From Candidatus Babeliales bacterium (GTDB lineage Bacteria > Babelota > Babeliae > Babelales > JACPOV01): DNA of 64,000 nt. The stretch lies in contig JBBDJI010000013.1 in assembly GCA_040879965.1 (NCBI GenBank), positions 298,365 through 362,364 on the forward strand, read 5' to 3'. This document shows, piece after piece, positions 32,963 to 35,807 of this stretch (its first letter is position 1; every line of letters begins with the position of its first letter). The translations under genes and the position numbers were made by a program. The notes under the pieces are model-generated. The model was given only the letters and a program-made list of their open reading frames with translations. It was not told where the DNA came from and made no database searches.

Positions 32963-33010
32963 GAAGCTTTCTACTACGCTCTACGAACTTCGAAGGATAG
33001 ATTAGCGAAA
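32963..33010. repeat. GC-rich palindromic repeat, copy R1
   Basis: gaagctttctactacgctctacgaacttcgaaggatagattagcgaaa is near-identical to 35542..35588 and related to 35608..35646. Core is cgaacttcgaag. Confidence 0.8.
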
Positions 33011-33189
33011 TATGGTGCACCCTATCGGATTATTTTAGAACTTTAATTCCAGATAATAACATGCTGCTTACAGTCAAACAAATGCTGGTTGCTTAAGCTT
33101 GATCATTTAAAATACAAAAATTATTTTGTTAAAGTTGTATTAATTCGTTAATACCAAACATCATATGGAAAGAGGCTATTCTAGTTAGA

Positions 33190-33547
33190 TTTTTTTGCTG
33201 GTCACTTGGCTGACAACAATCATAAGCTGCTTGTTCGGCTTACTAGAAATATTTCGGGAAAAATTTTTGGCGATAAAGGATATCTTTTAAATGAAAATAT
33301 AATAAAAAGCTTTTATCAAAAAGAAATTCAATTTATAACAAAAGTGAGATCAAATATGAAAAATCAATTTATGAATATGATAGATAAACTATTACTTTCC
33401 AAGCGAGGTATGATTGAATCAGTCAGAGATATTCTCAAAGAACGGAGCATTCGAGACATAGAAGCGCTTGGGGGTTTTTTTTCATATTTTTACTTCTTTC
33501 ACTGCTTATCAAATGAGAAAAAAAACCCTCAATCTCTACTGAATTAA
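33190..33547 (+). mobile_element. IS982-family (DDE) transposase relic: N-terminally truncated and frameshifted
   Basis: GKIFGDKGYLLNE...ITKVRSNMKN...DKLLLSKRGMIESV matches the IS982-type C-terminal half. The family signature EHSRHRS is encoded at about 33446-33466 in a different frame (gag cat tcg aga cat aga agc). TAG lies immediately upstream of the ORF, and no N-terminal half is present. Confidence 0.7.
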
Positions 33548-33783
33548 CAAAAAATTTAATATGCGCTTAGATCGAATTCACGTTAAAATACAAACAATGC
33601 TGTGCGTTTAAGTTAATCTTTATACTGTTTACATTATTCAGAGAGCCTATGCACAAAAGCTTATTCATAATCATAACATATCAATATCTCCCTAAATTTT
33701 GGGCCAGCTCCTTTCATTGGAAATTGAATCTGGCCGAGCAGGATGCGAAATATCAGTTTTTAGTGAAAAATATGTTGACTTTC

Positions 33784-33863
33784 ACACAGTAAAGATGATA
33801 TATATTTAAAAAAGTTGACTTTCACACAGTGAAGATGATATATATTTAAAAAAATAGATTAAA
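33784..33863 (+). promoter_or_regulatory. 2 x 40 bp tandem duplication, each unit carrying a -35 TTGACT and an extended -10 TGaTATATA
   Basis: Units 33784-33823 and 33824-33863 differ at one base (a33801 vs g33841). TTGACT at 33785-33790 and 33825-33830, with an 18-nt spacer to tatata preceded by tg. The proximal unit ends 13 nt before the ATG of the FkbM gene. Confidence 0.5.
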
Positions 33864-33876
33864 AAAAAAGGAAAAA

Positions 33877-34713
33877 ATGCAACATAATTATAATTGCTGG
33901 TTATTAAGTATTGTCGTATGTACAACCTTTACCAACACTACATATAACAATGTAGAAAAGCTCATAAAACACTATGCAAAAAATCCTATCAAAGTTTTTA
34001 TGAATTCTTCCACAGTTTCTAATCTGGGTTTTGGAAATTGTGATTCTTCACAAAATGGTGAGAACTTGGTTATTGAAACGTTTATTCGAAAAAATGATAT
34101 TGTTTTAGATGTAGGAGCACATATTGGTTTATGGTCAAAAGCTGTATTAAAAGCTACCAACAATAGTTGCTCTATTTATTCCTTTGAGCCTGTACCTGAT
34201 TCATACGATGTTCTTAAAAAACTAGAATCACCATTGGTGAATCGAGTTTTTACTTTTTGTTGCGCACTTGGCAAAGAAGAAAAACAAACGACAATGAATT
34301 ATTTTTTTGTTCGAGGATCTGATTGTAGTACTTTATTTGAAAGACCAATCTTATCTGATGTTCCAGTATGTAAAATTATAGTAGACGTAACTTACTTAGA
34401 TAAGTTTTCTGAAGAGAATAACATTCAACATATTAATTTCTTGAAAATAGACACCGAAGGCGCTGAGCTGAATGTTATTCATGGGGCTCGAAAGCTTCTT
34501 GAAAATAATAAAATTGATATCATTCAATTTGAATATGGAGGAACTTATCCTGATGCAAATATTACACTGAAAGAAGTGTATAATTACTTATTATCACATA
34601 ATTATACACTTTTTAGAATTGTTTCTAATGGCTTAATTCATATTGCTGAATGGGTTGAATCATTAGAAAATTTCCAATATTCAAATTACCTAGCATTGAA
34701 AAATATTGCCTGA
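33877..34713 (+). CDS. FkbM-family SAM-dependent methyltransferase
   Basis: LDVGAHIGLWS (SAM motif I), FEPVPDSY, INFLKIDTEGAELNVIHGA are typical FkbM motifs. Confidence 0.8.
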   Translation: MQHNYNCWLLSIVVCTTFTNTTYNNVEKLIKHYAKNPIKVFMNSSTVSNLGFGNCDSSQNGENLVIETFIRKNDIVLDVGAHIGLWSKAVLKATNNSCSIYSFEPVPDSYDVLKKLESPLVNRVFTFCCALGKEEKQTTMNYFFVRGSDCSTLFERPILSDVPVCKIIVDVTYLDKFSEENNIQHINFLKIDTEGAELNVIHGARKLLENNKIDIIQFEYGGTYPDANITLKEVYNYLLSHNYTLFRIVSNGLIHIAEWVESLENFQYSNYLALKNIA

Positions 34714-34963
34714 TAGTAACCCTATAGTTAAATTATTTTTTTGATGCATACCCTATTAACCCCAATGCCTAGAGAACAATTTTTCGTGCCAGCCGCCTTG
34801 TCCGGCGTAGTCTTGGCGAAAGCCCAAAATGCATAAAGTTTTAAATTAAGTCCAGCCTTCTTCGCGTTTCGCTTACGCCGGCGGACAGCTTTCGTCTTTA
34901 TTTTGTAAATTTCACTGCTTTCTTAAAATTTAACCTTTAAAAAATTGCTCCCGCCAGCTGAAG

Positions 34964-35206
34964 CTACAGCAATCTCTTATCTCTAAATGCTCGGCCAGAA
35001 TGCGATTTTAAATATTTCTCAAATTCAATCGCTTTTTCTTTATTGCTAAATGCTAAGTACATAACCAATTGCCAAGGTTTATATTTCTCTGTGTGAGTAG
35101 TAGTACCATTATTATGATTAGATAGACGTTTTTTTAAATCTTGTGTGTGACCTATATATATTTGGTCAGCATGACTTATAGATTGAATAATGTATACATA
35201 ATACAT
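34964..35206 (-). CDS. Small GIY-YIG nuclease-superfamily protein (YhbQ/UPF0213-like)
   Basis: 80 aa with YYVYIIQS....IYIGHTQDLKKRLSNHN and a later E (KAIEFEKYLK), the GIY-YIG core. Confidence 0.8.
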   Translation of the reverse strand: MYYVYIIQSISHADQIYIGHTQDLKKRLSNHNNGTTTHTEKYKPWQLVMYLAFSNKEKAIEFEKYLKSHSGRAFRDKRLL

Positions 35207-35345
35207 TTAAATTCTCTTAAAAACTGGCGTGCAAATCCGTCGTCGCCTTACGGCTATACCGGACAGGCTTCGCACTTTTCTATAAAAATTATTTTTTTCT
35301 ACCTTAGCTAATGCCTGCTAGGCGTAGCCCTTTATGGGCGAAGCC

Positions 35346-35422
35346 TGGTGTGCCCGACCGGAATCGAACCGGTGACCTACAGATTAGGAATCTGTCGCTC
35401 TATCCTACTGAGCTACGGGCAC
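35346..35422 (-). tRNA. tRNA-Arg (anticodon CCU), CCA encoded
   Basis: Reverse complement folds as a cloverleaf: acceptor GTGCCCG/CGGGCAC, D stem GCTC/GAGC, anticodon stem ACAGA/TCTGT with loop TTCCTAA, T arm ACCGG-TTCGATT-CCGGT, then ACCA. Confidence 0.9.
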
Positions 35423-35541
35423 GAAAATTTTTAAAAGATAAAAAATAGTTGTTGCTTGAACTTATGGTTTGGCCAAATAGTTGATTTTCTGTTTAGCTTT
35501 TTCTTCTATTGACTCATTTAAAAAAACTGGCCGTGCCAGCT

Positions 35542-35588
35542 GAAGCTTTCTACTACGTTCTTCGAACTTCGAAGAACAAGTTAGCGAA
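35542..35588. repeat. GC-rich palindromic repeat, copy R2
   Basis: gaagctttctactacgttcttcgaacttcgaagaacaagttagcgaa contains the perfect palindrome cttcgaa-c-ttcgaag and is preceded by ggccgtgccagctgaagc (also at 35701..35718 and, degenerate, at 34952..34964). Confidence 0.8.
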
Positions 35589-35607
35589 TAGAAATTCATT
35601 TAACTAG

Positions 35608-35646
35608 CCTTACTACGCTCTACGAGCTTCGAAGGGCATACTTCGC
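35608..35646. repeat. GC-rich palindromic repeat, copy R3 (more diverged)
   Basis: gccttactacgctctacgagcttcgaagggcatacttcgc shares the tactacgctctacga.cttcgaagg core with R1 and R2. Confidence 0.7.
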
Positions 35647-35730
35647 TTTTTTATATCAAAGTAGTTTTTTATTTATTTATAATTATTCCATTAATAAGTT
35701 GGCCGTGCCAGCTGAAGCCTTGGCGAAAGC

Positions 35731-35807
35731 TGGTGCGCCCGGCAGGAATCGAACCTGCAACCTTCAGATTCGAAGTCTGACGCTCTATCCTATTGAGCTA
35801 CAGGCGC
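35731..35807 (-). tRNA. tRNA-Arg (anticodon UCG), CCA encoded
   Basis: Reverse complement folds as a cloverleaf: acceptor GCGCCTG/CGGGCGC (one G-U), D stem GCTC/GAGC, anticodon stem TCAGA/TCTGA with loop CTTCGAA, T arm GCAGG-TTCGATT-CCTGC, then ACCA. Confidence 0.9.

Follow-up and report, generated by a model that had tools for sequence, protein, structure and literature searches.

Organization of the tRNA-Arg locus

The window analysed here is a 64-kb stretch of DNA from a member of the Dependentiae (TM6, Babeliales), in which genes for tRNA-Arg(UCG) and tRNA-Arg(CCU) are accompanied by a gene for a small GIY-YIG nuclease and by GC-rich hairpin repeats. The repeats belong to a composite element, which reads on the minus strand, shared with both tRNAs and the GIY-YIG gene (Table 1). 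An intact unit and at least five decayed ones have accumulated in this region; the unit is a GIY-YIG cassette of ~0.4 kb that carries a hairpin leader. The original prediction, made from the sequence alone, had named the two tRNA-Arg genes, a fragment of an IS982-like transposase gene, an FkbM-family methyltransferase gene, and the GIY-YIG gene, and ARAGORN, Rfam, Pfam, and NCBIfam located all of them where it had placed them. It had also described the repeats as GC-rich, in agreement with the GC contents of the modules (43-68%, against 31.9% for the whole window).

The element starts at the CCA end of the tRNA and consists of a first hairpin (T1), a small hairpin (H), an AT-rich spacer, a 9-mer that complements the beginning of T1, another hairpin (T2), and the open reading frame (ORF) for the GIY-YIG protein, in this order. 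T1 has the form NNN-TWC-GCC-loop-GGC-TWC-N'N'N', and its first base directly follows the tRNA CCA. H (TGGCAnGCCA) comes after T1 and is often followed by a T run, and T2 has the form GTCCGCC-GWA-stem-loop-GWA-GGCGGAC. The TGG located after the 3' arm of T1 can pair with the tRNA CCA, by which T1 is lengthened, or alternatively with the CCA inside H.

Four repeat families had been proposed for the spacers, and all of them were recovered. Group (i) has three copies with three or fewer mismatches (0 expected), and group (ii) has two exact copies (0.02 expected) plus one degenerate third. Group (iii) is represented by CTTGGCGAAAGC at 34812 and 35719, one structured motif being located directly 3' of both tRNAs. 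The two segments of group (iv), which bracket the GIY-YIG gene (35235-35274 and 34850-34896), are strongly diverged, and a strict pattern recovered only one of them. The four groups are, however, not independent families but sub-parts of the one composite minus-strand element: group (i) corresponds to a nested hairpin, group (ii) to H plus the 3' arm of T1, group (iii) to T1, and group (iv) to T2. Pattern matching and a covariance model detected none of the four motifs elsewhere in the 64 kb. When the covariance model of T1 (named R1) was run over the whole window with filters off, only 35697-35730, 35308-35345, 32949-33012, and 35525-35591 were matched (E<=0.05).

Table 1. Features of the tRNA-Arg locus, listed in the reading direction of the element (bit scores marked R1 are those of the T1 covariance model)
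Feature	Position	Strand	Evidence	Remark
tRNA-Arg(UCG), encoded CCA	35731-35807	-	ARAGORN; Rfam tRNA 76.9 bits	Anchors first hairpin leader
Copy I: T1 (GCT-TTC-GCC-AA-GGC-TTC-AGC) + H (TGGCACGGCCA)	35697-35730	-	R1 43.3 bits, E=4.7e-9	Directly after CCA
Degenerate T2-like module of UCG leader	35607-35646	-	Pattern match	No ORF after; third copy (R3) of motif (i) in the original prediction
Copy G: relic T1 + H (TGGCACGGCCAG) + T run	35520-35591	-	R1 15.6 bits, E=0.05	
tRNA-Arg(CCU), encoded CCA	35346-35422	-	ARAGORN; Rfam tRNA 73.4 bits	Anchors intact cassette
Copy F: T1 (GGC-TTC-GCCC-ATAAA-GGGC-TAC-GCC) + degenerate H	35308-35345	-	R1 34.9 bits, E=6.4e-7	Directly after CCA
Copy E: T2 module	35219-35274	-		Same module ahead of all GIY-YIG homologs examined
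80-aa single-domain GIY-YIG nuclease gene (UPF0213/SLX1-like)	34964-35206	-	Pfam PF01541 E=1.3e-18	
Copy D: 3' half of older T1 (CTTCAGC) + H-like TGGCGGGAGCA + T run	34939-34963	-	R1 6.6 bits, E=9.6 (alone not significant)	
Copy C: relic T2 (GACGAAAGC + TGTCCGCC...GGCTGGAC)	34850-34896	-	TGTCCG architecture as in T2 alignment	No ORF after
Copy B: relic T1-like (GCTTTCGCCAAG..., internal insertion, TGGCACG)	34785-34825	-	R1 7.3 bits, E=6.5 (alone not significant)	
FkbM-family methyltransferase gene	33877-34713	+	PF05050 E=2.6e-25; TIGR01444	Between relic modules and copy A
IS982-family transposase fragment (DDE type)	33206-33547	+	PF13612 E=3.5e-19; NF033520	Both ends truncated
Degenerate pseudo-tRNA-Arg 3' half ending in GGGTGCACCA	33013-33054	-	Alignment with 10 orphan copies + 2 real tRNA-Arg genes	
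Copy A: T1 with 33-nt nested hairpin in loop + degenerate H	32949-33012	-	R1 16.1 bits, E=0.037	

The intact cassette adjoins tRNA-Arg(CCU). Its T1 (copy F), whose hairpin is present in the predicted minimum-energy fold of the RNA, is separated by an AT-rich spacer of 33 nt (35275-35307) from copy E, the T2 module. The 9-mer of copy E, TGCGAAGCC (35266-35274), contains GCGAAGCC, which is perfectly complementary to the initial 8 nt of copy F; the 9-mer is followed by the hairpin TGTCCGG-TATA-GCC-GTAA-GGC-GACGA-CGGAT (35235-35265) and by a half-H with a T run (35219-35234). The start codon of the GIY-YIG gene lies 12 nt beyond copy E, and copy D begins at the first base past its stop codon.

The remaining copies are decayed to different degrees. 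Copy I contains motifs (ii) and (iii) of the original prediction, and the degenerate module at 35607-35646 (GCGAAG, then a hairpin composed of a stem, a TTCGAA-GTAGTA internal loop, and a stem) is located 83 nt from the T1 start, the usual distance of T2. Copy G, which holds motifs (i) and (ii), has lost the first 3 nt of T1 and bears a 33-nt nested hairpin in the apical loop. Copy B is the orphan copy of motif (iii), and copy A, previously listed as the first copy (R1) of motif (i), directly follows the CCA of a pseudo-tRNA and is followed by neither T2 nor an ORF. TGGCACG was also considered as a sigma-54 promoter, but this was dropped as no -12 element follows.

A second, smaller palindromic unit with the same design (stem, TTCGAA-GTAGTA loop, stem) was observed at 32949-33012, 35525-35591, and 35607-35646. 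In two of these copies it lies inside the apical loop of T1, so that one hairpin element is nested in another. The same design is also found in other Dependentiae (loci L006 and L032; L numbers denote the loci compared in this study).

Recurrence of the element among Dependentiae

Fifty-seven Dependentiae loci were fetched through TlyA, together with 23 control loci from other phyla, and 1.45 Mb of loci were scanned with the T1 model. The order tlyA, tRNA-Arg(UCG), tRNA-Arg(CCU) is kept across the 57 Dependentiae loci. The spacers are not conserved among relatives, the distance between the two tRNAs ranging from 9 nt to ~8 kb. T1 and H start at the base after CCA in many of these Dependentiae tRNA-Arg genes. 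The T1 model detected ~49 copies in total, all in Dependentiae loci, of which 30 adjoin the CCA of an intact tRNA and ~8 adjoin a pseudo-tRNA; all strong matches are at tRNA ends or inside cassettes, and none of the 23 control loci outside Dependentiae gave a match at E<0.05. The tRNA ends of the relatives are occupied by a cassette, by multiple cassettes, or by T1 only, or are empty, which represents a presence/absence polymorphism beside a conserved gene. The GIY-YIG gene itself was tried as a conserved neighbour of tlyA and tRNA-Arg, and this was rejected, since no homolog was found in 80 tlyA loci.

T1 follows 30 of the 61 CCA-encoding tRNA-Arg genes of Dependentiae but none of the 15 genes without an encoded CCA (Fisher p=0.0002). 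The pairing of CCA with the TGG after T1, which can extend the hairpin, provides a sequence-based reason for this restriction. CCA-encoding and CCA-less tRNA-Arg genes were seen to coexist within single genomes (Dependentiae loci L002-L058 and L082-L093). In L009 (~16381-16450), a triple tandem repeat of ACCATAATAGGTTAAGC, unrelated to T1 and T2, is located right after a CCA-less tRNA-Arg(CCU).

All 17 GIY-YIG copies found in independent Dependentiae contigs are preceded by the T1-H-spacer-T2 leader. The first cassette adjoins an intact tRNA-Arg(CCU) in the window and in L082, an intact tRNA-Arg(UCU) in L085, L088, L091, and L093, tRNA-Ser(CGA) in Nitrospira, and a degenerate tRNA 3' fragment in other cases. 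In L082, an inverted pair of tRNA-Arg(CCU) genes (2749-2825 and 4807-4883) brackets the GIY-YIG cassette, an acetyltransferase gene, and an ORF of 153 amino acids.

Distribution of the cassette across phyla

Many bacterial phyla have the cassette at the 3' end of genes for tRNA and transfer-messenger RNA (tmRNA). Every genomic context retrieved for the GIY-YIG gene has a leader of the T1/T2 type upstream. Two examples come from cultured lineages: the canonical T1-H-spacer-T2 leader is present in Nitrospira sp. M1, and Geotalea toluenoxydans carries a variant in which T1 and H are followed by three T2-like tandem repeats of ~100 nt (L214, 1700-1960). The GIY-YIG gene of this Geotalea locus encodes 85 amino acids and lies between genes for a SIR2_2 protein and the type I restriction-modification protein hsdM, an arrangement resembling a defence island.

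An unbiased scan of metagenomes was performed with the pattern TGGCANGCCA-N(25-55)-GCGWAGNNTGTCCG, which specifies ~21 bases and contains no sequence from the tRNA or the ORF. It matched at least 120 stretches, on contigs of 28-70% GC. Sixty-eight non-redundant leaders (58 from the scan and 10 from the Dependentiae loci) were scored, and 60 of them are directly preceded by CCA. Intact tRNAs of 17 anticodon types (Arg, Ser, Lys, Leu, Pro, Tyr, Cys, Val, Ala, and SeC) precede 25 of the 68 leaders and intact tmRNAs precede eight (two with Rfam confirmation), while most others follow tRNA- or tmRNA-like 3' fragments. A specificity for tRNA-Arg, suggested by the first loci, was therefore rejected. 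A GIY-YIG ORF was found within 450 nt downstream of 33 of the 68 leaders; for 30, there is space for the ORF but none is present. The cross-phylum consensus, with slashes between its parts, is CCA / GCCTTCGCC-AA-GGCTTCGGC / TGGCARGCCA / spacer / GGCGAAGGC / T / GTCCGCC-GWA-GCC-TT-GGC-GWA-GGCGGAC, in which T2 amounts to T1 in inverted form, clamped between GTCC and GGAC.

Covariation in the leader hairpins

The original prediction had left structural conservation of the repeats to be checked; besides recurring in relatives, they form a structured family with covariation. In an alignment of 21 T1 sequences, the outer three base pairs covary (GC12/UA5/AU3; CG9/AU5/GC4/UA1; CG15/UA4), 91% of the cells are paired, and no G.U pairs occur in the outer stem. 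The covariation score was matched by none of 500 shuffles, and it collapses in slid controls. The 9-mer that precedes TGTCCG in T2 can pair with the opening 9 nt of T1 in the same leader and varies along with it: among 20 leaders, 161 cells are Watson-Crick pairs, 5 are G.U, 2 are A.C, and 12 are others. The triples formed by the T1 start, the T1 3' arm, and the T2 9-mer also covary (GCC/GGC/GGC 32, GAC/GTC/GTC 10, ACC/GGT/GGT 5, and others). In the alignment of 27 T2 sequences, 95% of the cells are paired, compensatory changes are found in the inner stem, and the sense strand shows 7 G.U and 0 A.C.

The GIY-YIG protein

The encoded protein is 80 amino acids long and contains the catalytic domain only, PF01541 covering residues 1-72 with no extra DNA-binding domain. 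Its sequence is catalogued among the proteins of Babeliales metagenome-assembled genomes. Thirty-one of the 48 recovered ORFs are exactly 80 amino acids long, as are nearly all of the close homologs (at least 419 clusters, 65-85% identity). A profile search yielded at least 7,955 clusters at 90% identity, including members from Geotalea toluenoxydans, Nitrospira sp. M1, and Thermodesulfobacteriota. The conserved residues are Y5, Y17, G19, R27, H31, N32, H38, T39, W45, and E63, together with a C-terminal YLKSGSGRAF motif; the copy in the window retains the conserved tyrosines, Arg27, His31/Asn32, and Glu63. The nearest solved structures are UPF0213 BH0048 (PDB 1zg2, E=1.5e-5) and SLX1, a structure-specific endonuclease. 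The score for TIGR01453 'group I intron endonuclease' is 17.4 bits, against a cut-off of 56. The median dN/dS is 0.14, and dS between copies is saturated (~1.6).

Tandem arrays, ORF-less copies, and duplicated tRNA ends

Several loci contain stacked or incomplete cassettes. L087 possesses four GIY-YIG genes within 13 kb, three of which are near-identical tandem copies with a period of 424 nt, whereas the three tandem copies in L091 are divergent (51-71% identity to the query). In L093, tRNA-Arg(UCU) is joined straight to a cassette; in L091, two extra cassettes occupy this junction ahead of a 92%-identical one. In L088, identical 33-nt copies of T1 bracket the spacer, T2, and ORF, and a second leader without an ORF follows. 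This second leader, at a tRNA-Arg(UCU) locus, is 96.6% identical to the leader at tRNA-Arg(UCG) in L019, in which the ORF is reduced to its first nine codons (MYYVYIIKS).

A duplicated tRNA 3' end with a second T1 was identified in three cases: in L037, where a perfect duplicate of 33 nt brackets a 200-nt ORF-less T1...T2 unit, in the Nitrospira cassette of L217 (23 nt), and in the unit of L185 (26 nt). Units bounded by true tRNA-end duplicates are 0.2-0.57 kb in size. The tandem arrays, the ORF-less copies, and the duplicated tRNA 3' ends indicate that the cassette is mobile and decaying.

Two further observations concern the arrangement of the units. The comparison of L093 with L091 shows 92% identity over the cassette and downstream gene but 70% over the tRNA and upstream gene, a mosaic suggesting recombination with a breakpoint at the tRNA end. 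In L005 (11187-11786), the region 3' of tRNA-Arg(UCG) consists of a leader and two direct repeats of ~230 nt with nested hairpins and no ORF, a leader-like hairpin unit being amplified in tandem by itself.

Relationship with known systems

The closest known system is that of the Ssn proteins and their NTS hairpins, and by analogy the cassette may work like an Ssn-hairpin pair. Ssn are single-domain GIY-YIG proteins of ~94 amino acids (CDD cd10448), the genes of which are bracketed by oriented NTS/SRM hairpins; they bind the hairpins, and their cleavage, which is restricted to single-stranded DNA, occurs a few nucleotides to the 5' side; neither double-stranded DNA nor RNA is cut (Chenal et al. 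2025, PMC11893778). The authors noted an insertion sequence (IS)-like NTS-ssnA-NTS layout and compared it with repetitive extragenic palindromic sequences (REPs) and their transposases (RAYTs); tRNA and tmRNA are not mentioned in that study (PMC11893778). Both systems have a small single-domain GIY-YIG protein (80-94 amino acids) whose gene is flanked by GC-rich oriented hairpins with a GTC-type tag. Unlike Ssn, the present cassette has a fixed T1-H-T2 leader upstream, is anchored at the CCA of tRNA or tmRNA, and occurs in low copy rather than as hundreds of dispersed hairpins.

CGTC-tagged REPs, which have short CCA tails and no known dedicated transposase, are represented by dRS3 in Neisseria (Di Nocera et al. 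2013, PMC3733652), and about half of the dRS3 copies are the longer NTS, the target of Ssn (PMC11893778). The tagged GC-rich hairpins and the link to CCA are shared with these REPs (PMC3733652), whereas T1 and T2 differ in having symmetric TWC/GWA internal loops and a TGTCCG tag, and the CCA is the tRNA's own 3' end. As in REP/BIME-REPIN and RAYT systems, imperfect palindromes are arranged as inverted doublets beside an enzyme gene and non-autonomous copies outnumber the genes, and the RAYT enzyme is thought to act on the palindromes as single-stranded hairpins. RAYT is, however, an IS200/IS605-like Y1/HUH transposase that is usually encoded in single copy, whereas the only repeat-linked ORF here is a GIY-YIG hydrolase, the gene of which is multi-copy and arrayed. 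REPs are dispersed in tens to hundreds per genome, whereas no copy was found off the tRNA locus in the 64 kb; this comparison covers the window and the 1.45 Mb of loci.

Free-standing homing endonucleases are likewise encoded by small intergenic genes beside conserved genes, and the cycle of invasion, stacking, and decay of the cassette fits the homing model. The Seg proteins of phage T4 are GIY-YIG enzymes of this kind, and SegB lies in a tRNA cluster. The Seg/I-TevI-type proteins differ in being larger than 200 amino acids, possessing a separate DNA-binding domain, cutting double-stranded DNA, and lacking a hairpin leader, whereas the present protein has 80 amino acids and the catalytic domain only. 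As with tyrosine-integrase islands, the insertion site is the 3' part of tRNA and tmRNA genes, and a segment of the tRNA 3' part is duplicated distally (L037, L217, and L185), but there is no integrase, the unit measures 0.2-0.45 kb, the repeat length varies (23-45 nt), and most copies lack a detectable duplicate. Integron cassettes (ORF plus attC) are similar in consisting of tandem ORFs separated by imperfect palindromes that fold as single-stranded DNA; in the present case, all cassettes encode one nuclease, intI and attI are absent, and the array is anchored at a tRNA end. The GC clusters of yeast and fungal mitochondria are nested GC-rich palindromes in AT-rich genomes, often near tRNA genes and GIY-YIG ORFs, but they are organellar and unrelated in sequence and have no defined CCA junction or conserved leader.

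In literature searches, no report was found in which GIY-YIG genes or hairpin repeats are tied to tRNA or tmRNA ends. The fixed composite leader, the anchoring at CCA ends, and the stacked cassettes are distinctive features of the element, and it is apparently undescribed. Ssn-type nuclease-hairpin pairs were recognized only in 2025; starting from the present locus, a very large group of relatives or a sister group is reached. The covarying, fixed hairpins at a precise CCA address provide a concrete substrate (the tRNA 3' end plus T1, and T2) for an enzyme of 80 amino acids, and may offer an answer to the question of what moves tagged palindromic repeats that have no transposase. They also explain some of the unannotated GC-rich sequence and 'orphan tRNA fragments' beside tRNA genes in Dependentiae and other genomes. 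Such enzymes are, moreover, of practical interest for site-specific cutting of single-stranded DNA.

Proposed mechanism of spread and alternative explanations

We regard it as probable, if not strongly so, that the cassette spreads to tRNA ends through nicking by its nuclease near its own hairpins and subsequent copying by the host, with older copies decaying. By analogy with Ssn, the protein would recognize T1 and/or T2 folded in the single-stranded sense strand; in genes transcribed in the direction of replication, this strand serves both as lagging-strand template and as the non-template strand of a heavily transcribed gene. GC skew shows the tRNA genes of the window to be co-oriented with replication. 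The nuclease would nick near the tRNA end. Vacant tRNA ends, and those with T1 alone, would then receive a copy of the cassette through host repair or recombination, with homology supplied by T1/H and the conserved 3' end of the tRNA. New copies would thus enter beside the tRNA and push older ones downstream, where these may lose their ORF and decay to GC-rich relics (in the window, copies D, C, and B; copy I, the 35607-35646 module, and copy G; and copy A).

Several points weigh against this proposal. GIY-YIG enzymes are DNA hydrolases with no capacity for strand joining, and movement must therefore depend on host functions. The SRM pattern HGTCWYN(0-2)YYVSBRHN(0-5)WNVSBRGN(0-2)RNCYNB has 0 matches on both strands of the 64 kb, and neither the T1 nor the T2 consensus is matched, even when N is allowed in place of W, while a control NTS is matched. 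Duplicated tRNA ends were found at only four of ~90 occupied sites (neighbouring tRNA genes set aside), with lengths of 19-33 nt and a second T1 in three of them, and where cassettes meet older T1 copies at their 3' side, the junction has no fixed position. Since dS is saturated, most copies are ancient, and vertical descent could account for much of the distribution. The orientation of the element is always that of the tRNA and ORF, which fits a function at the RNA level equally well. A fixed target-site duplication was rejected because the duplicates are rare and variable in length; together with the unfixed 3' junctions, this is easier to reconcile with recombination or gene conversion than with a site-specific recombinase.

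In a stronger version, which is possible but doubtful, the cassette would be an autonomous mobile element of ~0.4 kb whose sole protein is a hairpin-specific, single-stranded DNA nuclease of 80 amino acids. It would target a structure common to all bacteria, the acceptor/CCA 3' end of tRNA and tmRNA genes, by building CCA into T1. The nick, made while the DNA of these highly transcribed genes is transiently single-stranded, would be repaired by copying of the cassette, which would have spread between phyla, from Dependentiae to Nitrospira and relatives of Geobacter. If so, this would reveal a natural function for Ssn-type nucleases and an enzyme that mobilizes GTC-tagged palindromic repeats.

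It is also conceivable, though unlikely, that the protein is a domesticated Ssn-like host factor that is not itself mobile and that cuts single-stranded DNA at its cognate hairpins, for instance so as to restrict or modulate incoming or recombining DNA. The hairpins at tRNA ends would then be regulated sites, and the arrays and relics would result from ordinary duplication and decay. SsnA in Neisseria sets a precedent for such a factor, and the strong purifying selection and old divergence between copies are as expected for it. So is the absence of the gene from plasmids and viral contigs: no relative of the GIY-YIG protein was found among IMG/VR viral contigs, and plasmids gave one weak match (E=3e-4) and two non-significant ones, on which basis carriage by phages or plasmids was rejected. 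Host-factor status accounts poorly, however, for the small number of the hairpins and their confinement to tRNA ends, given that NTS/SRM are dispersed in hundreds, and the divergent multi-copy arrays, ORF-less copies, and near-identical leaders at different tRNAs have a selfish appearance.

Less likely again is an explanation purely at the RNA level, in which T1, H, and T2 would form a 5' untranslated region co-transcribed with the tRNA, H and its T run would end tRNA transcription, and the alternative pairings (T1 start with the T2 9-mer; CCA with UGG) would control read-through, tRNA 3' processing, or translation of the nuclease. The constant orientation with the tRNA and ORF and the mutually exclusive pairings are consistent with this. 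When all helices were pooled, the sense strand showed 20 G.U (G.T) against 7 A.C pairs (p=0.0096), and this excess identifies the sense strand as the folding strand, as either RNA or single-stranded DNA. Wobble pairs nevertheless amount to only ~2% in these strongly covarying helices, an overall scarcity that is more typical of DNA hairpins. Predicted fold energies discriminate weakly, although the value for the sense RNA (z=-2.2) is lower than those for the antisense RNA (-1.45) and DNA (-1.6). T runs follow H in many AT-rich hosts (including copy G of the window, L019, and L088), but they are absent in GC-rich hosts and from copies I and F. No match on T1, H, or T2 was obtained with 4227 Rfam models, either in a scan of the window at gathering thresholds, in a permissive search of 32.8-35.9 kb (E<=5), or in 11 loci of other phyla, the only matches in the leader loci being to tRNA and tmRNA (or overlapping tRNA). 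In addition, the ORF-less unit between duplicated tRNA ends in L037 represents an event at the DNA level, and a role of the leader in RNA would account for expression of the cassette but not for its distribution.

The original prediction had raised the possibility of a tRNA-targeted insertion spanning ~33.0-35.7 kb, with an att-like duplicate at 33013-33022 (tggtgcaccc), on evidence that it called weak. In such a model, a single islet of ~2.7 kb would have entered tRNA-Arg by means of an integrase that was later lost, the repeats being att debris. This has only a slight chance of being correct. The site is indeed a variable, insertion-prone tRNA site that is hypervariable among relatives, a tRNA-derived fragment followed by the same trailer is present at its far end, and an IS relic and an accessory-type methyltransferase gene lie in between; the recurring unit, however, is the ~0.4-kb cassette and not an island of ~2.7 kb. 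The tRNA origin of the remnant was upheld, whereas its length is ~42 nt rather than 10 nt: the sequence adjoining copy A, ATCTGGAATTAAAGTTCTAAAATAATCCGATAGGGTGCACCA, is AT-enriched, and its derived form (AGTTCTAAAATARTCCGATAGGG..CACCA) is common to at least six other contigs, where it precedes orphan T1 copies. L084, L085, L082, L103, and L170 contain it, L087 has three copies, and the T1 that follows differs in every case. Because this derived form is shared across genomes and found thrice in one contig, the fragment was not made from the local tRNA and cannot mark the boundary of a 2.7-kb insertion; it either travels with the hairpin element or is an ancient shared relic, and units composed of pseudo-tRNA and T1 are present at unrelated loci. 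As had been noted, there is no integrase gene: none was found in the 31-38 kb ORFs or at the cassette loci, and the internal modules are accounted for as stacked cassette relics. The IS982, FkbM, and GIY-YIG genes have a GC content of 30%, equal to that of the genome, so that the composition of the FkbM and GIY-YIG genes bears no mark of foreign origin.

Convergent intrinsic terminators or chance GC-rich palindromes without a common origin can be dismissed almost entirely: a hairpin with a T run after a tRNA is the form expected of a terminator, but a pattern of ~21 bases recurs across phyla together with a gene for 80 amino acids and the CCA junction, shuffles give 0 expected copies, and the 23 non-Dependentiae control loci have no match at E<0.05.

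Neighbouring genes

The FkbM gene and the IS982 relic are bystanders that lie between the stacked relics and the orphan unit (copy A). The downstream flank is not found in any sampled relative, the nearest of which shares 72% TlyA identity with the window. A gene for a ParB-like nuclease (ParBc_2) and several small family-less ORFs were noted just past copy A (31289-32155); they have no homolog in the tlyA loci of 57 other Dependentiae and represent a lineage-specific flank.

The promoter duplication previously proposed for the FkbM gene corresponds to a perfectly phased tandem duplication of 40 nt (33768-33847; 93% identity) upstream of the gene. Each duplicate contains TTGACT and an AT-rich stretch resembling a -10 element, and the two may constitute a doubled promoter. 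The IS982 fragment covers positions 147-219 of the 243 positions of NF033520 and scores 56 bits, against a cut-off of 130, which indicates a relic rather than a full-length gene. At its 3' end, an inverted repeat of 30 nt (80% complementary, with a 21-nt gap) occupies 33460-33540 and may be either a remnant of an IS terminal region or a terminator.

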